19,421 nt of DNA. Origin: a virus. This document shows, piece after piece, positions 1 to 16,001 of the stretch. The notes below the pieces were generated by a model, which worked only from the letters and a program-made list of their open reading frames with translations, was not told where the DNA came from and ran no database searches. Position numbers and translations under genes: made by a program. Within the stretch, counting starts at the first letter, position 1; each line of letters begins with the position of its first letter. The stretch lies in UHGV virus genome UHGV-1602873. One strand, given 5' to 3'.

Positions 1-15
1 TTTGTTGACTTCCAT
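1..15 (-). CDS. Start of a Nu1-like terminase small subunit gene (first 5 codons only; continues off the window)
   Basis: Reverse complement of 1-15 is ATGGAAGTCAACAAA (MEVNK), identical to the first codons of the Nu1 gene at 15379; upstream context (16-30) also matches the Nu1 ribosome-binding region of the second copy. Confidence 0.45.
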
Positions 16-240
16 TGTTCATTCCACGGACAAAAACAGAGAAAGGAAACGACAGAGGCCAAAATGCCCGTTTTCAGCGCCTGTCATTTCCTTTCTTTTC
101 AGGGGGTATTTTAAATAAAAACATAAAGTTACGGCGAAGAAGAACGGAAATGCCTTAAACCGGAAAATTTCCATAAATAGAGAAAAACTGCGCGCCTGAC
201 GCCCCGTAGCCTGTCAGATCGCCGGAAAGGACCCGCCAGC
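16..240. other. cos site of the island (cos2): cosB-like region, cosN-equivalent 12-mer at 193-204, cosQ-like flank 205-238
   Basis: Position-for-position alignable without gaps to 15380-15600 (the lambda-type cos); the 12-nt cohesive-end equivalent reads cgcctgacgccc versus aggtcgccgccc in cos1 (5 of 12 differ); flanking R-site-like blocks mostly conserved. Confidence 0.6.
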
Positions 241-260
241 CAGAGCGGGCCCTAATTTCA

Positions 261-644
261 TCAACCAATCAGCTTATAGCGACCATCCCGTGCATTGCGG
301 CGTACACGCTCAATCTTGAGGCATAGCGCCGCATCTGGCTTTTTTGGGACAGGTACGCGGCAATATTCAGAAGCGCGAGGAATATTATTTATCCAGTCGA
401 TCACTTCACTTAAATACCAGGCCTTACGCCCTTCCGTAACCTGCACACGCTCCGGGAACTCTCCACTAGCCTCAAGGTTTAGCAGTGTACGCCGACTCAG
501 GGTTGTAATTTCCATCACCTGATTCATATCAACAAGGCGCTCGCTTAAACACATTTTGTCAGCGATAGCTTTTAATTCCTCTACAGCTGGATTCGGGTAC
601 ATCATTTCGGCAATTGGCTTAAGGTCATTGTAATCATTCTGCAT
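261..644 (-). CDS. AlpA/Xis-family winged-helix DNA-binding protein (127 aa)
   Basis: Segment ITTLSRRTLLNLEASGEFPERVQVTEGRKAWYLSEVIDWI matches the AlpA/excisionase-like fold signature (GxFP, W..SEV..WI); strong SD (AAGGGGGA) 5 nt upstream; start follows the upstream stop codon within ~15 nt. Confidence 0.7.
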   Translation of the reverse strand: MQNDYNDLKPIAEMMYPNPAVEELKAIADKMCLSERLVDMNQVMEITTLSRRTLLNLEASGEFPERVQVTEGRKAWYLSEVIDWINNIPRASEYCRVPVPKKPDAALCLKIERVRRNARDGRYKLIG

Positions 645-655
645 TGTATCCCCCT

Positions 656-997
656 TTACACACGAGCCAGCGGCTGAACAGAAATACCTGAGCCAACAAA
701 TGCTGCAATCTTTACTGACAGTTCTTTTACAGACTCAGGCCAGTTCAGAGCATCAACATTTAAGACACCTGTCTTATAGACCTGAGCCTGTGTTTTTTTC
801 GCGGTGTCGATTTGTACAGCGGAAACATAAACCGCTTTACCTACGCTCGAACCATCCCATACCACCAGTGCACCTGTTGCATCTTCCTGCATCAGTGGCG
901 TAAATGCAGGAATTACCCCTTTATTAGCTGAAAATATCCCCAGCGTAGTCACCAGTGCTTCAGTGCCAGCCATGAGTTCAGTGTAATGAGTAGCCAT
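656..997 (-). CDS. Head decoration protein, lambda gpD family (113 aa)
   Basis: C-terminal half aligns with lambda D (LVVWDGSSVGKAV..YKTG..WPES..AAFVGSGISV versus [31 protein letters not shown]); divergent from the gpD at 9491-9823. Confidence 0.8.
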   Translation of the reverse strand: MATHYTELMAGTEALVTTLGIFSANKGVIPAFTPLMQEDATGALVVWDGSSVGKAVYVSAVQIDTAKKTQAQVYKTGVLNVDALNWPESVKELSVKIAAFVGSGISVQPLARV

Positions 998-1006
998 TGC
1001 TCCCCC

Positions 1007-2047
1007 TTAGCCAATGCGAACGGTAACAAAACGATTGATGCGGGCCGGTATTGGCTGTGGTGCTGAATGTGTCTGCACATATTCAATAGCCGGATCACCA
1101 GGCACAATATAGTTTTTCGGTGCAAGTTCGGCTTTAGTCAGCCCCATTCGGATTAGCTCCGGATCCTGAATACCGCCATAGGCGACAATCCCCTGAAGAG
1201 CCGTATTGCCAAGCACCATCAAATCAGGATCAAGGAAATGTTTTTCTGTTCCGTCCTCGTCGGTATAACGCCCGCTGTAAACAACAATCGCAACATCGCC
1301 CATATACCCTTTAAAACTCACCGAATCACCAAGGTCTTTAAGGGCCGTTTCCAGTTCGGAATTAGAACCACGACGGGTATCCAAAGCCTCTTTTATCGCT
1401 CTGAATGAACGGTATTTCTTCCATACATTACCACCCATAATGATGATATTAGTGACGCCCTCACTAAATTCTGCGTAGCTCTCAATATCATCATTTGGAT
1501 CAAAAGTTTCTTTATCCTTACCTGACCACTCAGTACCGCCAGACTGAGTGATGATATTTTGTGGTTTTATATTCCAGTCCAGCTCATAACGTTCAATACC
1601 ATCGCCCTCAATGATATTTTTCCCCGTTGTGATTGCCTGAACAGCAAGCCATTCAATACGTGCACGAATAGCTTTAGCCTGATTTACAATCGCCTGTTTA
1701 ACTTTAATATTACGCGCCCCAAAAGCATTGTATTGCTCAGGTGACACACCAGCAGGGCGCACAGCTAACTTATTTGGATCAATGCTGCTTTTCGGCTTCA
1801 TATAGCCTGGACGAATTGTTTTTGATTCGTACCCTTCGTCACGTGAAACTTTACTACCCACCATAGGAGAACAAAACGCTGCAATTGGGATATTTGGATC
1901 GTCGATTGTATCAAGAATAATATCGCGCGATTCAAACATTACCGAGCGAGTAAAAAACAAACTGGTAAACAACGCATTTAGTTGTTTTTGTACATCTACA
2001 GCATTAACTACCTGTACAAGCTGAGTAGGCGAATATAAATCAACCAT
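1007..2047 (-). CDS. Major capsid protein, lambda gpE family (346 aa from MVDLY start)
   Basis: Full-length homology to lambda E, strongest centrally (ITQSGGTEWS, DTRRGSNSELETA, GDVAIVVYSG, VLGNT); AAGAGGA SD upstream of ATG at 2047; the 71-codon N-terminal extension of the raw ORF is not used. Confidence 0.9.
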   Translation of the reverse strand: MVDLYSPTQLVQVVNAVDVQKQLNALFTSLFFTRSVMFESRDIILDTIDDPNIPIAAFCSPMVGSKVSRDEGYESKTIRPGYMKPKSSIDPNKLAVRPAGVSPEQYNAFGARNIKVKQAIVNQAKAIRARIEWLAVQAITTGKNIIEGDGIERYELDWNIKPQNIITQSGGTEWSGKDKETFDPNDDIESYAEFSEGVTNIIIMGGNVWKKYRSFRAIKEALDTRRGSNSELETALKDLGDSVSFKGYMGDVAIVVYSGRYTDEDGTEKHFLDPDLMVLGNTALQGIVAYGGIQDPELIRMGLTKAELAPKNYIVPGDPAIEYVQTHSAPQPIPARINRFVTVRIG

Positions 2048-2221
2048 ACGCATCCTCTTTGCATTCATTAAAAATAATTGTGGATATATGCTATCACCGA
2101 TATTTGTCATGCGAACACATGCAACCGAGTGCAATGTTGTATAAAGTTTTGGGGTGACAACTTCAGTGCGGACAATTAGTGTTAATATCTTCACTCCCTT
2201 TGGTCGGGATTTATGTAGCAT

Positions 2222-2252
2222 GCCGGAAAATTTATTTTTTCCGGCTTTTTTT
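2222..2252 (+). terminator. Intrinsic terminator oriented on the plus strand
   Basis: Perfect stem gccggaaaa/ttttccggc (2222-2245) with 6-nt loop, followed by ttttttt (2246-2252). The U-tract follows the hairpin only in the plus direction, antisense to the flanking genes. Confidence 0.6.
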
Positions 2253-2263
2253 ATTGGCAATAT

Positions 2264-2713
2264 TTAAAACGGGATATCATCTCCCCATTGCTCATTATCT
2301 CCCTCTGGTGGCTGGCTTCCTTGCTGATCTGCCTGTTGTTTTGCTCTGTTCAGTGCGTCAGTAGCCTGCCCCTGTTGGCCTTTTTTGCCGCCCGGTCGCA
2401 CCGATCGCGCACTGATTACGCTGTCTGCGATAACCTGCCAGCCCTGCCGCGTTTCGCCGTTCTGTCCAGTCCACTGGCTCATCTGCATGTTACCCGCCAC
2501 GCTCAGGAGTTCGCCTTTGTGATGCTTTGCCAGCGCGTCGGCTTGTCTGCCAAACGCCAGGACAGATAACCACAACGTCGCCAGACCGTCATCCGACTGA
2601 CTGCAGGGCAGTGATACCGCCATACGCGCCAGCGTCATGGGGGTGCCCTTGCTGGTCTGTTTTGTCTGCGGGTCGTCCACCAACCGCCCGTAAACTGATA
2701 TTTGCGCCGTCAT
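2264..2713 (-). CDS. ssb: Single-stranded DNA-binding protein (SSB)
   Basis: OB-fold-like N-terminus (ISVYGRLVDDPQ..., LSVLAFGRQADALAKHHKGELLSVAGNMQMSQWTGQNGETR), Gly/Gln-rich linker and C-terminal acidic tip ending DDIPF, as in E. coli SSB. Confidence 0.8.
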   Translation of the reverse strand: MTAQISVYGRLVDDPQTKQTSKGTPMTLARMAVSLPCSQSDDGLATLWLSVLAFGRQADALAKHHKGELLSVAGNMQMSQWTGQNGETRQGWQVIADSVISARSVRPGGKKGQQGQATDALNRAKQQADQQGSQPPEGDNEQWGDDIPF

Positions 2714-2967
2714 GCTGCCTGCTCTCCGGACTTAATATTGATTGTTGTCACTTCCTCCGCTTCAGCAATCTCCCGTTCGGTCAGCGTGGCAAAGTTTGCA
2801 GCCGCCGTTGTCATGAATGCGCTTATCAGTTCGGGATGTGCTTTCGCGTATCCTTCCCCGGCGTTGCGGTCTATTGCCTTAATCGCCACCCTTAGCCAGT
2901 GTTCAGCCATATCAAGGGCGCGGTAATGTGGCTTTATATGTTTGTTCAGTTTTCCTGATGTGTGCAT
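2710..2967 (-). CDS. Hypothetical small protein (85 aa; possible internal start giving ~66 aa)
   Basis: ORF overlapping the ssb start by 4 nt (coupled); no recognisable motif. Confidence 0.45.
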   Translation of the reverse strand: MHTSGKLNKHIKPHYRALDMAEHWLRVAIKAIDRNAGEGYAKAHPELISAFMTTAAANFATLTEREIAEAEEVTTINIKSGEQAA

Positions 2968-3012
2968 TTTTATTTTTACCCCCTCGTTTAAAAAGTTTTT
3001 TGTGCACCACCA

Positions 3013-3245
3013 CCTTGTCTACCTTGTCTACCTGATTAGTTATCAGGCCAGTAATGGCGCGGGTTTCAGGGAGGTAGACAGCCCCAAATAGCTGTCTACC
3101 TCATCTCTACCCGTCTCCTTACCTGTCTACAAAAATGGGTAGATAAGGTAGATAACAGGTAGACAGTGAAAAATAGTTATCTACCTGCATTAATACATTG
3201 AAATAAAAGTATTTTCTTTCAGTCAGGTAGACAAGGTAGATAACC
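3013..3245. repeat. Iteron array, putative replication origin
   Basis: At least 10 copies of GGTAGA(C/T)A(A/G) in both orientations: tandem ttgtctacc x2 (3015-3032); 12-bp perfect inverted repeat gaggtagacagc/gctgtctacctc (3071-3082, 3091-3102); ggtagataa x2 (3138-3155); caggtagacag (3157-3167); caggtagacaaggtagataacc (3224-3245); AT-rich stretch 3189-3222. Lies immediately 3' of the primase-helicase gene. Confidence 0.65.
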
Positions 3246-3256
3246 ATTGCCATTTT

Positions 3257-5008
3257 TTATAAAAACGCATCGCAATCATCAGTAGTCGTTGCGTTGGTCT
3301 GCGTGACTCCCTTAACTTTTCGCGTAATATATTCATATCCGTAAACTTTCGCCGCTGACCTCATAGCCTTTCCGAACTCATTCACGCTCAAACATTTCCC
3401 CTTTCCTGTGTATGCCATGAAGGCCATATAGACACGGTAAAGGCTGTTTCTGGTCGTGTACTTCACGGTGTCACCACCACCGCCCATCATTAGCCCACGA
3501 GCTTCCTCCAGAAACTCCAGCGCCGCGCAAAGCTCAACAACCGGATCCGTTTGCTGCTTTATTGCCAGAGCTTCATCACCGTCACGCTGTTCCAGTAATA
3601 AAGCCCGTGCCTTTTCAGGGTCAGCAAAATTAGCCAGCAAGCGGCGGATAATTACGGGGATTTCTGCCGCTATCTTTTCCGGTAATTCCTTGTCTTTTTC
3701 GTCCTCCCTTACAATGTTGTCGAACCGGAAAATCACCCGACGGCGTGACACACCTCCGGCCCGTTCGGTAAAGATCATCGGGTCGTTATTGGTTGCCAGT
3801 ACCACCGCTCTTATTATCGTCGTGAATCGCTTCTCATATTTCGGGTTAATTTCAACGGGATCGCCTCCCGTGATTTTCTTGATGCCCGTGCCTTCCCCCG
3901 TATATTTCGGCTGATCGGCAAGGACGATAAGACGACTCCCGACAACCTGCGCGCGCCCTCCTGCATCATCGAGTGATGTCATCTCCGCGCTTACGGTGTT
4001 CTGTTTGCCAGCAAGCAGGGTGGCAATATGGGTAAATGTACTCTTACCGCTTCCCCCGTCTCCGGTGGCCTCAATGAACATCTGCCAGTCGTAGCGGTTC
4101 GCCATAATCATGTATAACGCGGCACATATACGCATCATCTTGCGCGGGTCTTTTCTTGCAGCATGTTCAAGCCATTTATGGAAATTTGGCGCATTATCGC
4201 GGATGTTTTCCCCTGCTACTGGTGGCGTGTACTCAATGCCATTGTGCGTGGTGCTCCAGTGCTCCGGCGAGTGCGGAGAAAATTCCCCCGTTTTCAGGTT
4301 AAGCACACCATTAGTGAACGGTAGCAAATCACCGGACGGCTCCCCCATGGGGTCGGCAATAACTTTTAACGCTTCCACGGCGTTATTGATTACACGTTTG
4401 CTGAACGTGGCCCTGTGCTCTGAATAGATCGCCACCATTTCGCGGCTCAGCTCCATTGTGCTGACCGGACACCATACCCCGCCGCGCCATACGTGGACGA
4501 TTTCACTTTCTGCATGAACACACACACCATCAAAGCGATCGGCAAGTAGTTGTGCACGTTCACTGTCTGCCATCTGTGAAAGTTGCGCCTTTTGCTTCGT
4601 CGGAAGATTAAGCACCAGACTTTCCCCACGCTCGCATTCCTCTTTGAGTCGCGGCAACTGCTCGGATAAATCCACTGGGCTGGTGTCAGTAATCCCCGCG
4701 TATTCGTGTACGGTCTTCACTCCAGCCACAGCCAGTAACGTAACAATCTGCGTCATGCTGTGCTCTGTGATATGTCCTGCGCGGTAAACACGCACACACT
4801 GACGATCTTCATCAATGATCCGGTAATCGGTGATATTTTTCAGTTGCTCATCAGCCAGCACGACAGGCGGCACATCGTCAGCGGCAATATGTTTACCCGC
4901 CCATTCCCGCCACTCTTTCGCATGGCTCCACGCATCACTACCTGCAAAGATGATTACCTCTGTCAGTCTGTCGCGTGGCTGTTTTTTTAAGTTCGGTGCC
5001 AGTTTCAT
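3257..5008 (-). CDS. Replication initiation primase/helicase (phage/plasmid primase, D5/P4-alpha NTPase family), 583 aa
   Basis: Walker A GDGGSGKST, downstream hydrophobic-D motif (LIVLAD); size and position after int-alpA as in P4-like and PICI elements; SD AGGGG upstream of ATG at 5008. Confidence 0.85.
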   Translation of the reverse strand: MKLAPNLKKQPRDRLTEVIIFAGSDAWSHAKEWREWAGKHIAADDVPPVVLADEQLKNITDYRIIDEDRQCVRVYRAGHITEHSMTQIVTLLAVAGVKTVHEYAGITDTSPVDLSEQLPRLKEECERGESLVLNLPTKQKAQLSQMADSERAQLLADRFDGVCVHAESEIVHVWRGGVWCPVSTMELSREMVAIYSEHRATFSKRVINNAVEALKVIADPMGEPSGDLLPFTNGVLNLKTGEFSPHSPEHWSTTHNGIEYTPPVAGENIRDNAPNFHKWLEHAARKDPRKMMRICAALYMIMANRYDWQMFIEATGDGGSGKSTFTHIATLLAGKQNTVSAEMTSLDDAGGRAQVVGSRLIVLADQPKYTGEGTGIKKITGGDPVEINPKYEKRFTTIIRAVVLATNNDPMIFTERAGGVSRRRVIFRFDNIVREDEKDKELPEKIAAEIPVIIRRLLANFADPEKARALLLEQRDGDEALAIKQQTDPVVELCAALEFLEEARGLMMGGGGDTVKYTTRNSLYRVYMAFMAYTGKGKCLSVNEFGKAMRSAAKVYGYEYITRKVKGVTQTNATTTDDCDAFL

Positions 5009-5304
5009 TTTTTGCCCCTGAATGCGTTAATCATGCTTTTCATTTTCTGGATGTTTCCCCGCGCTTTTTCCCTGCTGATGGGCTTACTGCGGGGTGCGGC
5101 ATATACCAGGGAAAAATCACGCCGGAACTGATAAACAGGCATCACGCAGTCATAGCTATACCCCTCACGGCGGTAAGTGATGCGCCGTTCTGCCACGCCT
5201 TTAATCGTTACCGTGCCGCCGTATTTATCGCGGTAAATATCGCCGTTCATAAATTCAGGCCGAGCGGGGCCGCTGGCAATAAAGCCAGAATTTTTCATTT
5301 CCAT
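5005..5304 (-). CDS. Hypothetical protein (99 aa), translationally coupled to the primase
   Basis: GAGGAA SD; stop overlaps the primase ATG (ATGA overlap). Confidence 0.55.
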   Translation of the reverse strand: MEMKNSGFIASGPARPEFMNGDIYRDKYGGTVTIKGVAERRITYRREGYSYDCVMPVYQFRRDFSLVYAAPRSKPISREKARGNIQKMKSMINAFRGKK

Positions 5305-5321
5305 ATTATTTATTCCTCGAC

Positions 5322-5543
5322 TTAACTCGACTTATTTGATAGCAGGGCACTATTTATTGCGTCATTGAGTTTTTCTGCTGATTCATCAATAAGTGACAAC
5401 AGGCCATAAGCAATATTTGCATCTTCATTGTCATTTATGCAATCAAGCCACATATTTAATATTGCTTTTGCTGAATTATTTAAAGTTAATGAACTTTCTG
5501 CACATGCTAACAATTTAAAAAAGACTTCCCGTTCTGTATTCAT
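5322..5543 (-). CDS. Hypothetical small protein (73 aa)
   Basis: AT-rich ORF; start abuts the stop of the upstream gene. Confidence 0.45.
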   Translation of the reverse strand: MNTEREVFFKLLACAESSLTLNNSAKAILNMWLDCINDNEDANIAYGLLSLIDESAEKLNDAINSALLSNKSS

Positions 5544-5735
5544 TTAATCCCCCACCAGCTTACTTTCTTCCTCAATGAGGAAACTAGCGACACTTCCCGA
5601 AAGGCGCGCCAGTAGGCTCGCCAGCGCGGATATATCAGCATCTGTAATTTTGTTCGGATATACCTCAAGAAGGCGGCAAATAATTTCTGTCTGGTGCGCA
5701 CGTTCAGCGGCTTCGTGTAATGTGATTTCCTGCAT
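5544..5735 (-). CDS. Hypothetical small protein (63 aa)
   Basis: Start codon overlaps the stop of the upstream ORF by 1 nt. Confidence 0.45.
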   Translation of the reverse strand: MQEITLHEAAERAHQTEIICRLLEVYPNKITDADISALASLLARLSGSVASFLIEEESKLVGD

Positions 5736-5920
5736 TAATGCACCTCTTTTAATTCATACACTGCTGAAATAATGACTTGTGATAAGCCATATTCTGATGA
5801 TTCGCTTCTCACCGCAGCAATAGCCGTCTGAACATTAACAGCCTTCACATTCTGAGCGATACCAATTGTGTGGCCTATTGGGTTAACAGCTCGGGCAAAT
5901 ACACGGAAGGTTTTAAGCAT
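5735..5920 (-). CDS. Hypothetical small protein (61 aa), first gene of the operon leading to the primase
   Basis: GGGAG SD 6 nt upstream of ATG; competes with a plus-strand ORF starting at 5919, so the call is tentative. Confidence 0.4.
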   Translation of the reverse strand: MLKTFRVFARAVNPIGHTIGIAQNVKAVNVQTAIAAVRSESSEYGLSQVIISAVYELKEVH

Positions 5921-6201
5921 GACTCACTCCCTGGCGGATTTTTGCAGCGAATACAGCAACACAACCGGACGGGCAACGGCTACGCGCTTCGCGTTCCGTC
6001 CAGGCGGTTACGTGGATGATTTGAGATTCTCCGGCACTCAGTGCCAGAAAACGCCACACAAAGGCCGTTTGTGTGTGTACAAGGTGTGGTATATGATTTA
6101 CAGCAACCATAACGGCTCCTAGTTTACGTTGTTGGTTAGACGCCCCGTATGTGTTCCCAGCACTGCGGGGCGTTGCTCTTTGTATTTCAACAATCCTTTC
6201 G

Positions 6202-6279
6202 GTGTGTTTCATGTTATGAGCGCATGAAACACACGTCAAGGCTTTTTGTATTTCTTTTTTTGTGTATACTGAAACACAC
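6202..6279. promoter_or_regulatory. Operator-like repeats overlapping a leftward sigma70-like promoter in a divergent control region
   Basis: 12-bp perfect inverted repeat gtgtgtttcatg/catgaaacacac (6202-6213, 6223-6234) plus a third copy gaaacacac (6271-6279). On the minus strand, TTGACG (6234-6239), 17-bp spacer, TAACAT (6211-6216) form a promoter whose -10 and spacer sit inside the repeats. Confidence 0.5.
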
Positions 6280-6300
6280 CGATGATTAGGAGTTTCAGAA

Positions 6301-6606
6301 ATGGCAACGGCTAACAAAAACGCAAAATCACAACTGACAACTGTCAGAGTCCCACTAGATGTTATGCAAGGGATGGAATCCGTTAAGCTGGACGGTGAAA
6401 GCAATGCCGGATTTATCGTAACCGCCATGCGCGGTGAAATCGCCCGCCGCCAGGCAGAAGGAAGCGGAGAAAATCCCCTCGTGTCTTCACTGGATGCCTT
6501 AGCTAAGGTCGAACAAATCGGTATCAAGGCAGCGGAGGAAATCGGGCAACTCGTAGCCGTCGCTCGTGAAGAACTCCAGCGGCGTAAAGCCAAAGAATCT
6601 GAATAA
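6301..6606 (+). CDS. Hypothetical protein, candidate regulator (101 aa)
   Basis: AGGAG SD 8 nt upstream; charged helical C-terminus; transcribed divergently from the small-gene/primase operon, next to the operator repeats. Function not recognised. Confidence 0.6.
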   Translation: MATANKNAKSQLTTVRVPLDVMQGMESVKLDGESNAGFIVTAMRGEIARRQAEGSGENPLVSSLDALAKVEQIGIKAAEEIGQLVAVAREELQRRKAKESE

Positions 6607-6956
6607 TTAGTATCAGCGCCGTGATGTGAGTAACTACGGCGCATTGCTATGTAAATACTGGCAATAAACAGAAAAGGTAGTTCTACTCCGAATAATTTTA
6701 TCTGACACTACTCCTGAACTAACATGCGCTTATCTTACAGGATATAAATATAAATCCATAAAATCACGATTAAATAAAGTCGCTCCAAACATAAACCACA
6801 CCCAACGCTTAACAAGATAGCAACAAACAGGTAAATAACTTGCAGAAATATTTATCGCAAGGATTATCATTATTAATGACAAATCACTTTACCAAGTCAT
6901 TCCCCTCTCTTATCATAAAGAGAAAGTAATAAATAAGTTAAGGGAGTTAGAATGCT

Positions 6957-7493
6957 ATGAATCTAAAAAAAATAGCCACAAACACAAAAAACAAGATAAC
7001 AGAAACATTTAATAAACTTATATTAGAGGCATCTAAAACCCCCACACAAGATGAAATTAAAATACTTGAGAGAAGGAGTAAGAAGTTTAATTACTCCTTT
7101 TTCTCATACGCAGTCACAGGAGCTATAATAGTTTTTTGCTCTCAACCATTAATTAAATACGCAAACCCAATACTTATTTTATTGAGTGGTCTGTTACTGT
7201 CTATCATCATTATCATTCTCAGAATGATTTATATTTCACAAGCGAATGCATCATGGACAACCAAAAAACGCTCACATGTACTAGTTCATTTTCTTTCTGC
7301 ATGTTTCATAGCATCAACATTGACGTTGCTATATCAGGCTTACGATAATAACATCACACACAAATTGTACTGTAAAAATATACAACAACTTATTGAAAAA
7401 AGGATAGAGACAGAAAAAAACATCAGCATATTCAGTGGGATGCAATGCACCCCGGTATATGATTACTCTTTATTTGGATTTAATCTCTTATAA
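6957..7493 (+). CDS. Small membrane protein (178 aa, about three predicted transmembrane segments) in an AT-rich cargo segment
   Basis: Hydrophobic stretches FFSYAVTGAIIVFCSQPLI, ILILLSGLLLSIIIIILRMIYI, VLVHFLSACFIASTLTLLY; AGGGAG SD; Lys/Asn/Ile-rich codon usage unlike its neighbours. Confidence 0.6.
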   Translation: MNLKKIATNTKNKITETFNKLILEASKTPTQDEIKILERRSKKFNYSFFSYAVTGAIIVFCSQPLIKYANPILILLSGLLLSIIIIILRMIYISQANASWTTKKRSHVLVHFLSACFIASTLTLLYQAYDNNITHKLYCKNIQQLIEKRIETEKNISIFSGMQCTPVYDYSLFGFNLL

Positions 7494-7502
7494 AGAATGT
7501 TA

Positions 7503-7536
7503 TTACTGATTTGAGTACAAATTCTCAAATCAGTAA
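7503..7536. terminator. Hairpin between convergent genes (membrane protein and alpA), likely bidirectional terminator
   Basis: Perfect 13-bp inverted repeat ttactgatttgag/ctcaaatcagtaa with 8-nt loop, flanked by T/A-rich sequence on both sides. Confidence 0.55.
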
Positions 7537-7562
7537 TTCATAATATTTTATTCTGAGATAAT

Positions 7563-7799
7563 TTAAACTACCCACTCACCTCGAATCCATGCCTGCACTT
7601 CTGAAAGACGATATGCAACAGCAGTGGAACCAATCTTGATCCGCTTAGGAAATTTTCCTTCCTTCTCCAGCTTCCAGCGTGTGCTGTTCGCAAGAGTGGT
7701 TAGCTCCCGACATTCTTTCTCACGGATCATTCGGTCAATGTTAGGAATGTACTCCAGACCCTTTTTATCAACAATTGCCATTTTTTTCATGTTAACCAA
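7563..7799 (-). CDS. alpA: AlpA-family transcriptional regulator/excisionase-like protein (78 aa)
   Basis: Signature LEYIPNIDRMIREKECRELTTLANSTRWKLEKEGKFPKRIKIGSTAVAYRLSEVQAWI; overlaps the integrase stop by 8 nt. Confidence 0.85.
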   Translation of the reverse strand: MVNMKKMAIVDKKGLEYIPNIDRMIREKECRELTTLANSTRWKLEKEGKFPKRIKIGSTAVAYRLSEVQAWIRGEWVV

Positions 7800-9027
7800 C
7801 CTTTTGTTTGAGGATTGTCACTTTTGAATCAGCACCTGCGATGCTATTGAGATATGTAGTCCAGAGTTCCAGAGCATCCAGTTTTTTAGCCATAAACTTA
7901 CTCCGGTTGTAAACACCTGCCACGCCAGGTAGCGCATGGCCTAACAGTTGTTCTACTACATAAAATTCAACACCGAGATCACTTAGATGAGTAGATAGCG
8001 TTCTTCTAAGGTCGTGTAGTGACCATTGTTTTTCATGGCCCAAACGTTTACCGATTTTCCCCCCAATCTTGCTTACGCTTTCTCTAATTCGCAGACTTCC
8101 CAGCACATAACCAGTATGTTTTGTCTCTTCGTGAACATCCGTTACCCACTGTCGTAGAATTTCAGGTACTGGTCTGACGATTTCAACACCAGTTTTTGAG
8201 TGATCTTTTGGTACAGTCCAAACCCAACTTTCGAGATCCCATTCGCTCCATTCTGATAATCGGGCTTCACTCATTCGACATCCAAATACTGTACAAAGCA
8301 CAAACATTTTTCGCGTGTATTCAGACATTAGTTTTAAATCAGGCTCGACAAAAATTGCCTTCCAGAGCTGGCCGAGTTCGGCTTCATCCAGAACCCGATC
8401 CCGCTTACCTGCAATCTGCCCCACATCACTCATGCGCAAATCCTTTAAAGCATCACACGTCGCGTACTGGCGTACCCGACAAAAACGAAGAGCTAATTTA
8501 GTGTCAGAAAAAACATACGCCGCCATAACTGGTGCATTACGTTTAATTCGGTCAAAACAGTCCAGCCATTCATATAGGTGAGTGTCATTTACGGGCAAAT
8601 GACCGATATAGGGAAAGATATGCTTTCGAAATCTGCCAAGCGTTACAGCATGAGTTTTACGACGCACCTTACAGTAATTTTCATACCAGTAATTTAGTGC
8701 ATCCTCCACTGTAACCGGCTTTAAGCGTTCTTCAGCCTGAATCTTAATCTGGATACGCGGATCACGTTTGTCAGCCAACCAACCACGGCACTCGTCGCGC
8801 TTTTCCCTTGCCTGTTTGAGTGACATATCAGGATATTTACCCAACGTTAGCCAGACCGGAGCAGCCCGGCCACCTGCTAACCTGTAGAAGAAAACAAAGC
8901 TCACAGCCCCTTTAGTACTCACACGAATAGAAAGCCCCTTTCCATCAGCAATGGTGATCTGCTTTTCTCTGGGTTTCCCCAGATATCCTTTAAGCGCTTT
9001 GTCGCTCAGTTTGTTCTCGCCAGCCAT
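7792..9027 (-). CDS. int: Tyrosine site-specific integrase, P4 family (start chosen at MAGENK; raw ORF extends to 9078)
   Basis: N-terminal arm-binding-like region (KALKGYLGKPREKQITIADGKGLSIRVS...), catalytic box HDLRRT and C-terminal tyrosine in GVAGVYNRS. Confidence 0.9.
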   Translation of the reverse strand: MAGENKLSDKALKGYLGKPREKQITIADGKGLSIRVSTKGAVSFVFFYRLAGGRAAPVWLTLGKYPDMSLKQAREKRDECRGWLADKRDPRIQIKIQAEERLKPVTVEDALNYWYENYCKVRRKTHAVTLGRFRKHIFPYIGHLPVNDTHLYEWLDCFDRIKRNAPVMAAYVFSDTKLALRFCRVRQYATCDALKDLRMSDVGQIAGKRDRVLDEAELGQLWKAIFVEPDLKLMSEYTRKMFVLCTVFGCRMSEARLSEWSEWDLESWVWTVPKDHSKTGVEIVRPVPEILRQWVTDVHEETKHTGYVLGSLRIRESVSKIGGKIGKRLGHEKQWSLHDLRRTLSTHLSDLGVEFYVVEQLLGHALPGVAGVYNRSKFMAKKLDALELWTTYLNSIAGADSKVTILKQKVG

Positions 9028-9159
9028 TTTTAGCCCCAAAAAGCAATACAAGCTGCAATACAGAGATGATTGCAACACACAGATAACGAGGAAAATTCAG
9101 TGAAAGCACCAGATAAACTTATTCTTTATTATCAAAAGATTAAGTGTAAAAACCAGCAA

Positions 9160-9435
9160 CTACACGAAAGCCTCAGAAAGCCATGCTAAGTGCTTGGGTT
9201 TGACATATCCCGGCGTAAATTCAGAGGTGGAGCCGCCACGGGAACGGATAACCTCACCGGAAACAATCGGCGAAACGTACAGCGCCATGTTTACCAGTCC
9301 CGGAATTTGTGAGAGATAGACTTTCTCCGTGGTGAAGGGATAGCTCTCACGGAAAAAGAGACGCAGAAACAGCGGATCAAACTTAAATTTCTGCTCATTT
9401 GCCGCCAGCAGCTGGGCGGTTGTGTACATCGACAT
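9160..9435 (-). pseudogene. E: Truncated lambda-type major capsid gene E (first ~82 codons, then 9 unrelated codons and a stop)
   Basis: MSMYTTAQLLAANEQKFKFDPLFLRLFF...TPGYVKPKH matches the lambda gpE N-terminus as recalled; the frame then reads LAWLSEAFV-stop at ~9190-9160, next to the integrase gene. Confidence 0.85.
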
Positions 9436-9440
9436 AAAAA

Positions 9441-9480
9441 AATCCCGTAAAAAAAGCCGCACAGGCGGCCTTTAGTGATG
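9441..9480 (-). terminator. GC hairpin plus U-tract in the D-E intergenic region (attenuator/terminator-like)
   Basis: On the minus strand: GCCGCC-TGT-GCGGC followed by TTTTTTT between the gpD stop and the E start. Confidence 0.35.
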
Positions 9481-9490
9481 AAGGGTAAGG

Positions 9491-9823
9491 TTAAACGATG
9501 CTGATTGCCGTTCCGGCAAACGCGGTCCGTTTTTTCGTCTCGTCGCTGGCAGCCTCCGGCCAGAGCACATCCTCATAACGGAACGTGCCGGACTTGTAGA
9601 ACGTCAGCGTGGTGCTGGTCTGGTCAGCATCAACCGCCAGAATGCCAACGGCAGTACCGTCGGTGGTGCCATCCCACGCAACCAGCTTACGGGTGGAGGT
9701 GTCCAGCATCAGCGGGGTCATTGCAGGCGCTTTCGCACTCAATCCGCCGGGCGCGGTTGCCGTATGTGCCGGGTCACTGTTGCCCAGCGGCTGGTAATGG
9801 GTAAAGGTTTCTTTGCTCGTCAT
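9491..9823 (-). CDS. D: Head decoration protein gpD (110 aa)
   Basis: Near-identical to lambda D as recalled ([12 protein letters not shown]...GTAISIV). Confidence 0.9.
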
Positions 9824-9832
9824 AAACATCCC

Positions 9833-10438
9833 TTACACTGGTGTGTTCAGCAAATCGTTAACGGCATCAGATGCCGGGTTACCTGCAGCCAGTGGTGCCG
9901 GTGCCCCCTGCATCAGACGATCCAGCGCAGTGTCACTGCGCGCCTGTGCACTCTGTGGTGCAGCTGCCAGAATGCGGCGGGCCGTTTCCACGGTCATACC
10001 GGGGGTTTCGGCCAGCACACGTGCCTGTTCTTCTCGTCCGTGAGCTTCCTCACAGTTGAGGATCCCCATAATGCGGCTGTTTTCTGCCGCAACCGCAGCG
10101 GTGATCTGCGCGTTCACGTCCGGCTGCGCCGCGCTGGCGTTTTCGCCCTCCGTCGCTTGCACCACGTCAGTAACGTCAGCCTGCGAAGCAGTGGTTGAAA
10201 CAGTTGTTGATTGAGTCTCTTTGGTCATTCGCCCTCCTGAGAGACGGGATTTACGTGCATCCAGTGCATCACGCATAACGGTGATCGCATCGGTGCTGTT
10301 GACAAGTTCATCAGCCAGTCCGGCATCAATGGCCTCCTGACCGCTGTACACTGCAGCCTCGGTATCCAGCACAGCCTGCACGGACAGGCCGGTATATGCC
10401 GACACCTTCTGCGCAAACATCCGGCGGGTTGCATCCAT
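9833..10438 (-). CDS. nu3: Capsid scaffolding protein Nu3 (in frame with and sharing the C-terminus of gpC)
   Basis: Internal ATG (MDATRRMFAQ...) giving 201 aa, the same nested arrangement as lambda Nu3 within C. Confidence 0.7.
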   Translation of the reverse strand: MDATRRMFAQKVSAYTGLSVQAVLDTEAAVYSGQEAIDAGLADELVNSTDAITVMRDALDARKSRLSGGRMTKETQSTTVSTTASQADVTDVVQATEGENASAAQPDVNAQITAAVAAENSRIMGILNCEEAHGREEQARVLAETPGMTVETARRILAAAPQSAQARSDTALDRLMQGAPAPLAAGNPASDAVNDLLNTPV

Positions 10439-11132
10439 CCGGGACTGCAGTGTCTCCCGGACATCACCCGGTAGATGGCTGTAGGGGTTGCCATCCACCT
10501 TATGGCTGCCGCTGTAAATCAGCGTGATTTCCACGCCCTGTTTCTCCAGCGCAGCGCCGTAATTACTGTGAGCCATCATGACGCCGATGGAGCCTGTCCG
10601 GGCGGTCTGCGTGACCAGACGCCGGGAGGCGGCGCTGGCAAGCAGCTGACCTGCACTGCAGTTCATGTCGTTGGCCAGCGCCCATACCGGCTTTATGTCA
10701 CGCACACGGGCGATGATGTCAGCACAGTCAAATGCTCCCGCCACCATCCCGCCCGGTGTGTCCATATCGAGCAGAATGCCGTCCACCATCGGATCGCTGG
10801 CAGCCTGTTGCAGACGGGCGATAATGCCGTTGTAACCGGTCATCCCCGAATACGGCTGCAGCGCCCGCGTCCGGCTGACCAGCGTGCCGGACACCGGCAG
10901 CACGGCGATGCCGTTCATGACCTGATAACTGCGGGCCTGTCGTGGTCCGTCATCATCAACGGATAACGCCAGCGCCGCGGGTGCCTCTCCGGCAGTCAGG
11001 CTGTCGCCGGACACCGCATCCGTCAGGCGGCTGATCCCAAGCTGGCCTGCAAGCGCACAAAAGAAAACCCGCGCATAGGCGGGTTCAAGCATCAGCGGCT
11101 CATTAAAGGCCATACTGGCAATATGCGGGAGA

Positions 11133-11152
<20 letters not shown>
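9833..11152 (-). CDS. C: Head protease/scaffold gpC (439 aa, GTG start)
   Basis: Starts VTAELRNLPHIASMAFNEPLMLEPAYARVFF with GTG at 11150-11152 preceded by GGAGGAG; the raw ORF's upstream extension is rejected; overlaps the end of B as in lambda. Confidence 0.9.
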
Positions 11153-14833
<3,681 letters not shown>

Positions 14834-14859
<26 letters not shown>

Positions 14860-15379
14860 TCAGCAACCCCGGTATCAGTTCATCCAGCGCGGCTGCTTTG
14901 TTCATGGCTTTGATAATATCCCGTTTCAGGAAATCAACATGTCGGTTTTCCAGTTCCGGAAAACGCCGCTGCACCGACAGGGGGATCCCGTCGAGAATAC
15001 TGGCAATTTCACCTGCGATCCGCGACAACACGAAAGTACAGAATGCGGTTTCCACCACTTCAGCGGAGTCTCTGGCATTCTTCAGTTCCTGTGCGTCGGC
15101 CTGCGCACGCGTAAGTCGATGGCGTTCGTACTCAATAGTCCCTGGCTGGAGATCTGCCTCGCTGACCTGCCGCAGTTCTTCAACCTCCCGGCGCAGCTTT
15201 TCGTTCTCAATTTCAGCATCCCTTTCGGCATACCATTTTATGACGGCGGCAGAGTCATAAAGCACCTCATTACCCTTGCCACCGCCTCGCAGAACGGGCA
15301 TTCCCTGTTCCTGCCAGTTCTGAATGGTACGGATACTCGCACCGAAAATGTCAGCCAGCTGCTTTTTGTTGACTTCCAT
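14834..15379 (-). CDS. nu1: Terminase small subunit Nu1 (181 aa)
   Basis: MEVNKKQLADIFGASIRTIQNWQEQGMPVLRGGGKGNEVLYDSAAVIKWYAERD... matches lambda Nu1. Confidence 0.95.
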
Positions 15380-15600
15380 TGTTCATTCCACGGACAAAAA
15401 CAGAGAAAGGAAACGACAGAGGCCAAAAAGCTCGCTTTCAGCACCTGTCGCTTCCTTTCTTTTCAGAGGGTATTTTAAATAAAAACATTAAGTTATGACG
15501 AAGAAGAACGGAAACGCCTTAAACCGGAAAATTTTCATAAATAGCGAAAACCCGCGAGGTCGCCGCCCCGTAACCTGTCGGATCGCCGGAAAGGACCCGC
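15380..15600. other. Lambda-type cos site (cos1): cosB, cosN with the 12-nt cohesive-end sequence at 15557-15568, cosQ-side flank
   Basis: Reverse complement of 15544-15578 reads ACAGGTTACG-GGGCGGCGACCT-CGCGGGTTTTCGC, i.e. lambda right end, cohesive end and left end joined. Confidence 0.85.
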
Positions 15601-15767
15601 AAAATGATAATAATTATCATCTGCATGTCACAACGTGCATCTACGCCATCAAACCACGTCAAATAATCAATTATGACGCAGGTATCATATTAATTGATCT
15701 GCATCAACTTAACGTAAAAACAACTTCAGACAATACAAATCAGCGACACTGAATACGGGACAACCTC

Positions 15768-16001
15768 ATGTCAACGAAGAACAGAACCCGCAGAACAACA
15801 ACCCGCAACATCCGCTTTCCTAACCAAATGATTGAACAAATTAACATCGCTCTTGAGCAAAAAGGGTCCGGGAATTTCTCAGCCTGGGTCATTGAAGCCT
15901 GCCGCCGGAGACTGTGCTCAGAAAAAAGAGTTTCTCCTGAAGCAAACAAAGAAAAGAGTGACATTACTGAATTGCTCAGAAAACAGATCAGACCAGATTG
16001 A
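15768..16001 (+). CDS. Small basic protein, possible ribbon-helix-helix DNA-binding protein (77 aa)
   Basis: Arg-rich N-terminus followed by NIRFPNQMIEQINIALEQKG (RHH-like pattern); no strong SD, so tentative. Confidence 0.45.
   Translation: MSTKNRTRRTTTRNIRFPNQMIEQINIALEQKGSGNFSAWVIEACRRRLCSEKRVSPEANKEKSDITELLRKQIRPD

Follow-up and report, generated by a model that had tools for sequence, protein, structure and literature searches.

The stretch of DNA analysed here (the window) is 19,421 nucleotides of the virus genome UHGV-1602873, and it contains two sets of lambda-type capsid and decoration genes. The first set belongs to a lambda-like prophage. Starting from a cos site at 15365..15600 (minus strand) with the canonical cosN GGGCGGCGACCT at 15557-15568, intact Nu1, A, W, B and C/Nu3 genes, 97.5-100% identical to those of lambda, occupy 9833..15379 (minus strand). 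An intact D gene follows at 9491..9823 (minus strand; HDPD 1.6e-22), and 106 of the 110 residues of its product are those of lambda gpD. The E gene is broken. Its first 82 codons, at 9190..9435 (minus strand; Phage_cap_E 4.5e-15), are identical to residues 1-82 of lambda E, and the remaining 259 lie outside the window, beyond an island of approximately 11.3 kb (11,314 bp) that splits the gene after codon 82. The annotation of the near-identical locus L001 calls the 82-codon fragment a partial major capsid protein. The second set, consisting of a gpE homologue (E') and a gpD homologue (D'), is located within the island, 7-9 kb from the first. Indeed, Pfam searches and the junction sequences bear out the sequence-only reading, which had described two capsid and decoration sets within 10 kb, an island carrying its own gpE and gpD homologues beside a helper prophage with a broken E, and E' as the one gene of the gpE family left intact in the window.

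The island belongs to the Gram-negative PICI family and exhibits the hallmarks of that family: int, alpA, pri with a downstream ori, unidirectional gene order and a size within the 10-20 kb class. Its genes are arranged in the order int, alpA, an accessory/Bro zone, primase, ori, SSB, E', D', an HTH gene and cos. They include a tyrosine integrase of the 11capE clade (7792..9027, minus strand; Pfam Arm-DNA-bind_3 and Phage_integrase), the regulator/excisionase gene alpA (7563..7790, minus strand; Pfam Phage_AlpA 3.1e-15), a primase/replicase (3257..5008, minus strand; Pfam D5_N, DUF5906 and Pox_D5) and SSB (2264..2713, minus strand; Pfam SSB 2.1e-15). A repeat search revealed iterons GGTAGACA and GGTAGATAA, in direct and inverted copies (repeat families D2, D15, I1, I5 and I9), at 3015..3248 (unstranded; L001 18015-18248). 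They are positioned just 3' of the primase gene and are probably the island's replication origin; in PICIs, pri is followed 3' by the origin (PMC6092414). The helper genes Nu1, A, W, B, C, D and the 5' part of E and the island genes int, alpA, pri, ssb, E' and D' are all on the minus strand, and thus the island is co-oriented with the late operon. The left end of the island, its attR end and the 3' part of E were taken from two near-identical loci, L001 and L010, in both of which the 3' part of E comes after the island. A DUF262 and HEPN gene pair is also carried by the island, just outside the window. No P4-type immunity RNA (C4/isrK) reached gathering thresholds when the window was scanned with Rfam. 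A scan for promoters and terminators gave no convincing dedicated promoter for E' in the island, where promoter-like counts are at shuffle level, and in the interval from ssb to E' no strong terminator on the minus strand.

The E' gene (1007..2047, minus strand) begins with an ATG that has an AGAGGA Shine-Dalgarno sequence and encodes a 346-residue homologue of the gpE family of major capsid proteins (PF03864 2e-41; PHROG 29 2e-89). It covers the Phage_cap_E profile over its full length (positions 4-327 of 329), and its PDB matches are 3BQW (2.7e-121) and lambda gpE 7VI9 (4.7e-77). The former is a 351-residue crystal structure deposited as 'Putative capsid protein of prophage', in which the residues aligned to E' equal those of c1499 from the island EcCICFT073. 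Cryo-EM structures of lambda gpE also exist. The D' gene (656..997, minus strand) encodes a 113-residue homologue of gpD/SHP decoration proteins (PHROG 49 1.2e-25) that matches PF02924 (HDPD, 4.4e-15) over positions 1-111 of 116; its PDB matches are phage 21 SHP 1TD0 (6e-16) and lambda gpD (1e-11). E' and D' therefore share folds and families with lambda gpE and gpD (7VI9, 1C5E) and phage 21 SHP (1TD0).

Directly after D' lies a gene for a 127-residue AlpA-family HTH protein (261..644, minus strand; Phage_AlpA 7.6e-9; PHROG 2790 1e-49). This gene always occupies that position in the PICI family that carries E' and D' (it is syntenic in loci L002-L007, at 64-96% identity), and its dN/dS is 0.056. 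The possibility that it encodes Rpp was considered and rejected. Structures of Rpp have reportedly been solved and would be expected in the PDB, and a PDB search with the HTH protein gave AlpA 8C3T (2e-9) and no other DNA-binding structure at E<=1. Similarly, the protein is unrelated to the one encoded after the D' homologue in EcCICFT073.

Where helper E meets the integrase side of the island there is a 10-bp att core, AGCCGAAGCA, at 9191..9200 (minus strand), and the same core is found at both junctions, with the attR end being seen in the proxy loci only. Similarity to uninterrupted E genes, from more than 3,000 E. coli genomes, ends precisely at position 9191 of the window. Removal of the island in silico, for which the rebuilt helper E is that of L001, restores an in-frame E of 341 residues, of which 338 match lambda E. 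The helper fragment spans positions 1-78 of the Phage_cap_E profile, which fits an insertion near profile codon 80, and the supplement of the 2023 survey discussed below lists an identical core for E_Phage_cap_E_80 HE-PICIs. Near the core, at 9043..9068 (unstranded), is a doubled motif (GCAATAC..GCAATACAG) with a second copy at the other end of the island, outside the window. In L001 these copies are 26-nt repeats (repeat family D6), each containing GCAATAC twice, at 12963-12988 and 24043-24068, and they are 85% identical; we infer that they are the doubled attP-flanking motif described previously (PMC10111431). Judged by its junctions, the break in E is a precise and reversible site-specific insertion rather than prophage decay.

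Taken together, the second capsid and decoration pair almost certainly consists of genes of a PICI embedded in its helper (an HE-PICI), of the 11capE type, at the site E:Phage_cap_E:80, an assignment made by sequence comparison. This arrangement is already known: the 11capE class was published in 2023 (Tommasini, Mageeney and Williams; PMC10111431), in a survey that included 201 instances at this site. Both the island-side att arms and the set of genes are as published for 11capE, in the paper and in its supplement. For example, Eco567.11capE of E. coli NRG857c (CP001855.1:1199333-1210409; NAR Genom Bioinform 2023; PMC10111431) uses the same E site (Phage_cap_E codon ~80), has island-side att arms of nearly identical sequence, and shares the late zone, the variant cosN and the DUF262/HEPN cargo. 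Its proteins are nearly those of our island (integrase 409/411, AlpA 75/75, E' 345/346, D' 113/113 and HTH 127/127 identical residues). The two differ in their core, AGCCGAAGCA here and AACCCAAGCA in NRG857c, both of which are in the supplement of the paper, and in the middle zone, from the icd-like gene to the primase, which is a different allele without a megablast match. Furthermore, the helper in our window is almost lambda itself in its head genes, unlike that of NRG857c. After induction of NRG857c, prophage and satellite are first excised as one composite, which replicates; excision of the satellite comes later (PMC10111431). No plaque-forming particles were recovered from the strain with 11capE and 50icd (Tommasini et al.; PMC10111431).

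The junction of int, alpA and E is present in 174 of 5,426 complete E. coli genomes, and HE-PICIs at the same codon of E also occur in Cedecea and Kosakonia, with integrases 83-88% identical to that of the island. Evidence of mobility comes from the closest copy of the island (FDAARGOS_1268), in which 3 of 9,195 bases are different, against 148 of 6,730 in the helper around it. On this comparison (99.97% identity for the island, 97.8% for the helper) the same island resides in different lambda-like helpers.

At its distal end the island has a cos site of its own (1..245, minus strand), comprising a lambda-like cosQ, a variant cosN (GGGCGTCAGGCG, 193-204), a lambda-like cosB and the start of a Nu1 remnant. 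It aligns with helper cos 15365-15600 over 236 bp at 90.7% identity, and its cosN differs from that of the helper at 5 of 12 bases. The Nu1 remnant has its first 5 codons in the window, and the Nu1-like portion, its first 12 codons, continues leftward into the proxy sequence; a full Nu1-like (TerS) gene is absent from the island.

Pfam and annotation likewise revealed no portal, prohead protease, head-tail connector, TerS or TerL among the island ORFs, Pfam and the RefSeq annotation of an identical island revealed no tail or lysis genes, and helper B, C, A and W proteins as tblastn queries gave zero matches in related islands. Capsid-forming PICIs (cf-PICIs, e.g. EcCIEDL933) have their own major capsid protein, as the island does, but also encode portal, protease, connectors and terminase and steal only tails; the island is without these genes. 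The Ccm protein of SaPIbov5 is, like E', a satellite homologue of the HK97-fold capsid protein of the helper, but it redirects capsid size in a Gram-positive system and shows no sequence relationship to E'. With P4-like satellites the island shares only the integrase, AlpA, an Icd-like protein and a D5-type primase, and no Sid, Psu or Delta was found in it by annotation and Pfam.

Although E' and D' are homologous to the helper pair, both have diverged considerably, as had been proposed from the sequence alone. Pairwise alignment gives 42% overall identity between E' and the rebuilt helper E or lambda E, and 33% between E' and the 82-codon helper fragment; for D' and helper D the values are 38% (BLASTP, 6e-18) and 35% (global alignment). 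The further proposal that divergence is concentrated at the termini while the centre of gpE is conserved was examined with lambda E and the E rebuilt from L001, the window itself holding only 82 helper E codons, and it holds in part. Alignment columns 211-270 are indeed 67-69% identical and the last 50 columns only 33%, but the conserved columns lie past the middle, and the entire stretch of columns 1-165, not the terminus alone, is diverged (13-40% identical per 30-column window). Thus the N-terminal half of E' is its most divergent part, and the best-kept block, at gpE residues ~160-270, is found past the middle of a near-collinear alignment with just five short indels relative to lambda E. 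Recent gene conversion of this block with a lambda-type E was considered and ruled out: along the whole alignment of E' with lambda E, each segment shows saturation at synonymous sites (pS 0.65-0.90), with a pS of 0.74 in the conserved centre.

The relatives of E' and D' point to a history separate from that of the helper genes. Among 50,697 phage records the best match to E' is lambda E, at 42.3%. PICI capsid proteins are 77-98% identical within their subfamily, 52-55% identical to c1499 and 41-46% identical to phage E proteins, while two phage E types share 61% with each other. The PICI capsids group together and have clade-specific motifs at both ends, which in E' occur in the N-terminal half and at the C-terminus. 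The gene order E'-D'-HTH recurs in chromosomal PICIs, at two sites in E. coli and also in four further genera; for example, the E' cassette, at 79-96% nucleotide identity, occurs in PICIs at tRNA-Pro/yejM and cspD/clpS, where no capsid gene is interrupted. Values of dN/dS (0.05-0.08 for E', 0.06-0.11 for D') signify strong purifying selection. By these comparisons E' and D' are an old satellite-specific lineage, the c1499/c1500 family, and not a recent copy of helper genes. In fact, because the module is also found in islands outside capsid genes, its presence is not specifically a response to the breaking of E.

The lineage is also present in EcCICFT073, the model Gram-negative PICI (Fillol-Salom et al. 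2018, 2019). Its c1499 and c1500 occupy the same slot, after pri/ssb and before cos, belong to the same two families and are nearer to E' (55% identity) and D' (54%) than any phage protein. The two islands differ in that EcCICFT073 is chromosomal, beside phoQ, and has RppA and a non-lambda cosB, whereas the present island lies inside its helper and has a lambda-like cosB without an Rpp or TerS gene. Deletion of c1499 or c1500 left transfer and interference unchanged, and all DNA packaged from EcCICFT073 with lambda was phage-sized (PMC6092414); interference in this family has been explained by Rpp acting on TerS (PMC6739421). These results argue against an essential or size-redirecting role for the pair, at least with the helpers tested. 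In the literature after 2019 we found no demonstrated function for the gpE and gpD homologues of PICIs.

We infer that E' and D' are a cognate structural pair assembled on the portal and scaffold of the helper, which is the likeliest role and to which we would give slightly less than an even chance. Q-antiterminated late transcription of the helper would read through the 5' fragment of E into the island, and as a consequence E' and D' would be made late and helper E would be absent until the island excises. E', as a full-length HK97-fold protein, would then build or join shells together with D', using B, C/Nu3, terminase and tails of the helper (a separate shell, possibly of different size, and co-assembly with the helper's proteins were the two options offered by the sequence-only reading); since the island is without C/Nu3, B, W, A and Nu1, any E' shell would depend on the helper's. 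Island DNA would be packaged as multimers from its own lambda-like cos, four copies (45.3 kb) being a lambda-sized substrate. The N-terminal region of HK97-fold capsid proteins is expected to contact the scaffold and the decoration protein. Because this region of E' is the least like lambda E, productive use of lambda Nu3 is not assured, and because of its altered cosN the island may package poorly or not at all with the present helper.

A bolder form of this proposal, 'capsid replacement', strikes us as possible but doubtful. Here the satellite would have a shell of its own, with E' as lattice and D' as cement, nucleated on the portal and scaffold of the helper, and of the two capsid proteins only E' would be made early in the late phase. 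The position of the island inside E and in line with the late operon would make helper E available after excision only, and the private cosN overhang might stop island ends from annealing to helper ends.

Three other roles each appear to us less probable. It was suggested with the description of 11capE that such genes are a back-up copy, captured from the helper to replace the interrupted capsid gene until excision (PMC10111431). The island does interrupt E while carrying an intact E-family gene in late-operon orientation, and 11capE was found by searching for islands that encode a homologue of their own target gene (PMC10111431). Capture from the helper is nevertheless unlikely given that E' and helper E share only 42% identity and have diverged to saturation at synonymous sites, that no closer phage relative exists among the 50,697 records, that the same cassette occurs in the PICIs at tRNA-Pro/yejM and cspD/clpS, and that D' is carried even though D is uninterrupted. 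The divergence, the non-embedded cassettes and the presence of D' indicate that compensation is at most a secondary benefit and not the origin of the genes.

Alternatively, E', with or without D', might join or replace gpE so that the shells come out small, with room for the 11-kb island but not for the 48-kb helper. Capsid homologues have been linked to small capsids in other PICIs, with SaPIbov5 Ccm reported and PmCI172 suspected (PMC6092414), and for Proteobacteria SatelliteFinder includes 'capsid morphogenesis' among the core components of a PICI (PMC10085698). The strong purifying selection implies that the genes have a function, and by our own scaling estimate 11.3 kb would fill a lambda-type T=3 shell to approximately 83%. 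Against such redirection, which we consider improbable, stand the phage-sized DNA packaged from EcCICFT073 with lambda, the lack of relief of interference upon deletion of c1499 or c1500, the attribution of that interference to Rpp and TerS (PMC6739421), and the fact that four island copies already amount to a normal lambda headful.

The pair might instead serve a non-structural purpose, for instance by deceiving or triggering defence systems that sense capsids, by titrating the helper's scaffold, portal or chaperone, or by excluding other phages. Strong constraint on genes whose deletion from EcCICFT073 has no phenotype in transfer or interference would be consistent with this, as would the defence cargo that PICIs often carry, in this island DUF262 and HEPN. 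However, E' and D' have lost neither the length nor the fold signatures of capsid and decoration proteins that assemble, and they invariably occur together, as a lattice and its cement should, so that we see little likelihood of a non-structural role. Finally, that there is no satellite at all, only two decaying prophages side by side or a rearrangement that duplicated head genes, as two closely spaced E/D sets in a prophage-rich region might suggest, is extremely improbable: it is refuted by the 10-bp core junction with its adjoining integrase and arm-type repeats, and it is at odds with the perfect E given by deletion of the island, the PICI gene content without portal, terminase, tail or lysis genes, the 99.97% identical island in a helper only 97.8% identical, and the published experimental excision of 11capE.

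The locus is a striking one, in which a parasite of a virus is lodged in the virus's own capsid gene. Satellite-borne gpE and gpD homologues have been known since 2018, and the additions made here are modest: E' and D' are an old satellite lineage and no recent capture, the same island occurs in different lambda-like helpers, and its cosN is altered. The puzzle is that enterobacterial PICIs keep a deeply diverged pair under strong selection although its deletion has no laboratory phenotype. If the island did replace the capsid of its helper, it would be an intermediate between classical PICIs, which use all-helper capsids, and capsid-forming PICIs. Because helper E would be off until the island excises, the embedded island may provide a natural test case for the role of this pair.

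The long genes of the window are all encoded on the minus strand. They include a lambda-type head-gene block made up of Nu1 (14834-15379), A (12934-14859), W (12731-12937), B (11133-12734), C/Nu3 (9833-11152) and D (9491-9823), whose proteins share 96-100% identity with their phage lambda counterparts and are free of stop codons; the helper genes for portal, protease/scaffold, terminase and D are intact. Helper E starts at 9435 and follows lambda E for 82 codons, after which the sequence is unrelated, leaving the island gene E' as the sole intact gpE-family gene in the window, as the sequence-only reading had proposed. A 10-bp core, AGCCGAAGCA, is common to both island junctions, which read ...GGATATGTCA AGCCGAAGCA C|TTAGCATGG... 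from the 5′ part of E into the island and ...GACTCATGT AGCCGAAGCA TGAGGTGAAT... from the island into the 3′ part of E in E. coli FDAARGOS_1268. Because the window stops within the island, the attR junction, the 3′ part of E and the cargo genes were read from near-identical proxy loci. When the two parts of E are fused at the core, they form an unbroken 341-codon ORF that agrees with lambda E at 338 of 341 positions. Of 5,426 complete E. coli genomes searched with the int-alpA-junction segment, 174 contain the int-alpA-E junction in full, while more than 3,000 further E. coli genomes carry an uninterrupted E and match as far as the core's edge, at exactly window position 9191. Therefore, the shared core, the restored reading frame and the exact match edge identify the interruption of E as site-specific, reversible integration of the island and rule out prophage decay as its cause. 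Close to either end, the island has a doubled motif of 26 nt (GCAATAC...GCAATACAG).

Published work already covers every main feature of this arrangement. Tommasini, Mageeney and Williams (2023, PMC10111431) defined 'helper-embedded PICIs' (HE-PICIs), the founder being 11capE of E. coli NRG857c. This island of 11 kb interrupts capsid gene E of a lambda-like prophage and has its own capsid gene, a 10-bp identity block, a doubled motif around attP and a ~258-bp stretch with 90% identity to the helper cos. They list 201 instances for site E:Phage_cap_E:80, and in their supplement members of this group have the core 'agccgaagca' and island-side att arms that are nearly base-for-base those in the window. 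Indeed, the integrase (409/411 residues), AlpA (75/75), E' (345/346), the decoration protein D' (113/113) and the AlpA-family HTH protein (127/127) are identical or almost identical to those of NRG857c 11capE. The nucleotide sequences agree at 97.4% in the int-alpA zone and 98.4% in the late zone, and only the middle zone, from the icd-like gene to the primase, holds a different allele.

The island encodes, on the minus strand, a tyrosine integrase (7792-9027), AlpA (7563-7790), a D5-type primase (3257-5008), with small accessory genes between AlpA and primase, an SSB (2264-2713), the full-length gpE-family protein E' (1007-2047; Pfam Phage_cap_E, 2e-41), the gpD-family protein D' (656-997; HDPD, 4.4e-15) and the HTH protein (261-644), followed by a lambda-like cos (~1-245, minus strand). 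It is co-oriented with the helper late operon, and carries capsid and decoration genes without a portal, scaffold or terminase gene. Directly 3′ of the primase gene, iterons at 3015-3248 form a crowded block of direct and inverted GGTAGACA/GGTAGATAA repeats, a probable replication origin of the island. Between ssb and E', a gap of 216 bp (2048-2263) contains a hairpin, GCCGGAAAA...TTTTCCGGC. Its T-run occurs solely on the plus strand, and the hairpin is therefore not an obvious terminator of the island's own transcripts. Upstream of the annotated ATG, the E' reading frame stays open as far as a TTG at 2260, but homologues begin at 2047. A 34-36% GC patch between alpA and a YlcI/YnfO-like gene encodes, on the strand opposite to the island core genes (6957-7493, plus strand), a predicted 178-aa membrane protein that is common to NRG857c 11capE and found no match in PHROG or PADLOC. 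Directly left of window position 1, the FDAARGOS_1268 locus (13041-14757, opposite strand) encodes DUF262 and HEPN proteins, the former matching PADLOC NsnA (2e-59) and PD-T4-2_A (7e-39) and the latter PD-T4-2_B (2e-4), a probable two-gene anti-phage system borne by the satellite.

The cos of the island differs from that of its helper at cosN. Island cosN (193-204, minus strand) reads GGGCGTCAGGCG and differs at 5 of 12 bases from the helper and lambda cosN, GGGCGGCGACCT (15557-15568, minus strand), while the surrounding cosQ and cosB are ~91% identical to the helper's. FDAARGOS_1268 and the founder element of NRG857c, 11capE, share this variant; at six further PICI cos sites the 12-mer is that of lambda or is 1-3 bases off. 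The variant could give the island private cohesive ends or could make its cos poorly cleavable, and it may be linked to the published failure to recover plaque-forming particles from the 11capE strain (PMC10111431). Whereas EcCICFT073-type PICIs combine a non-phage cosB with Rpp, the cosB of this island (region 1-260 of the window, minus strand, and 14821-15015 in the FDAARGOS_1268 locus) is lambda-like (R3-I1-R2-R1). Next comes a 64-aa ORF in which the initial 12 codons of Nu1 are fused to unrelated sequence, a position at which four sister PICIs (L002, L003, L005 and L007) instead have a full 180-aa Nu1-like gene.

Two E/D sets do lie within 10 kb, homologous yet much diverged, and the sequence-only reading was a correct account of a real and interesting arrangement. 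With the full helper E rebuilt from the FDAARGOS_1268 locus, as the window has only 82 of its codons, and with lambda compared as well, E' shares 42% overall identity with helper E, with only five short indels; D' and helper D share 38% by BLASTP (6e-18) and 35% by global alignment. That the ends of E' diverge around a conserved centre proved approximately right: the divergent part is the N-terminal half (13-40% per 30-column window over alignment columns 1-165), together with the last 50 columns (33%), and conservation peaks in a block beyond the midpoint (columns 211-270, 67-69%). Synonymous divergence of E' from lambda E has reached saturation in all segments, this block among them (pS 0.65-0.90); its conservation therefore reflects protein constraint and not recent recombination.

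What the pair does is less certain. After mitomycin C, the prophage-11capE composite excises and replicates, with precise excision of the island as a later, ~2 h stage (PMC10111431). Helper late transcription would run through into the island, so that E' and D' would be made late, and helper E could not be made before island excision. In the lambda capsid gpD contacts gpE near the N-arm and E-loop. E' and D' may thus be a matched lattice-and-cement pair, given that E' diverges most in its N-terminal half and that the genes always occur together. Any E' shell would have to use helper B and C/Nu3, and the island's own cos would serve to package its DNA, four copies of which make 45.3 kb, a normal lambda headful. 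We consider a structural role of some kind to be close to an even call, if slightly short of it. Redirection of capsid size is an unlikely role: SatelliteFinder counts a 'capsid morphogenesis' gene, 'thought to' modify capsids, among the core PICI components of Proteobacteria (PMC10085698), but in the related EcCICFT073 deletion of c1499 or c1500 gave no phenotype, with island transfer and lambda interference unchanged, and DNA packaged with lambda was all phage-sized (PMC6092414). Interference and packaging specificity in that family are attributed to Rpp, which acts on helper TerS at a non-phage cosB (PMC6739421). These partial data from a related island argue against an essential or size-redirecting role, and the deletions show that a structural role, if real, is dispensable with the helpers tested. 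A non-structural role is similarly improbable. The later literature searched yielded no paper demonstrating a function for PICI capsid or decoration homologues. That the genes are relics is very unlikely, since the dN/dS values (E', 0.05-0.08; D', 0.06-0.11; HTH gene, 0.06) show strong constraint on E' and D'.

PICI late genes have been suggested to be captured from helpers, possibly as a back-up for the interrupted gene (PMC10111431); the comparisons point instead to an old, satellite-specific lineage. In a tblastn search of 50,697 phage records the closest relative of E' was lambda E, at 42.3%. The E'/D' cassette, at a coverage of at least 80%, is present in 395 of 5,426 E. coli genomes and is thus commoner than the embedded island (174). 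In two sampled cases, at tRNA-Pro/yejM and cspD/clpS, the cassette belongs to chromosomal PICIs of the ordinary kind, whose genes run pri - hyp - ssb - E' - D' - HTH. Among species-representative genomes, E' recurs at 80-87% identity in Kluyvera, Superficieibacter, Cedecea and Kosakonia, each time with D' and the HTH gene next in line. A recognisable PICI integrase or primase lies upstream in all but Superficieibacter, and no portal, protease or large terminase is nearby in any of the four. The model PICI EcCICFT073 has c1499/c1500 in the same position, at 55% and 54% identity to E' and D'. In all-against-all comparison PICI capsids cluster together (77-98% within the subfamily, 52-55% to c1499), against 41-46% to two phage-type E proteins that share 61% with each other, and have motifs specific to their clade, such as AFCSPMVGS close to the N-terminus and, at the C-terminus, GDPAIEYVQTHSAPQP. 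E' matches PDB 3BQW (2.7e-121), a 351-aa 'Putative capsid protein of prophage' whose aligned residues equal those of c1499; other matches were lambda gpE (7VI9) for E', and phage 21 SHP and lambda gpD for D'. Islands in Cedecea sp. and Kosakonia sp., with integrases 83-88% identical to that of the window, lie inside E split at the same codon, so this capsid-gene target is used across genera. The interrupted E is 66% identical to lambda E in Cedecea and 87% in Kosakonia; in the former E' proteins remain ~80% alike, and E' therefore does not closely track the helper's E. Within E. coli, the island differs from the FDAARGOS_1268 copy by 3 mismatches in 9,195 bases (window 1-9195), whereas 148 of 6,730 positions differ in the adjoining helper DNA (9201-15930; 97.8% identity) and the two prophages are largely unrelated beyond ~15930. 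The same satellite thus resides in different lambda-like helpers, consistent with its recent transfer between prophages.
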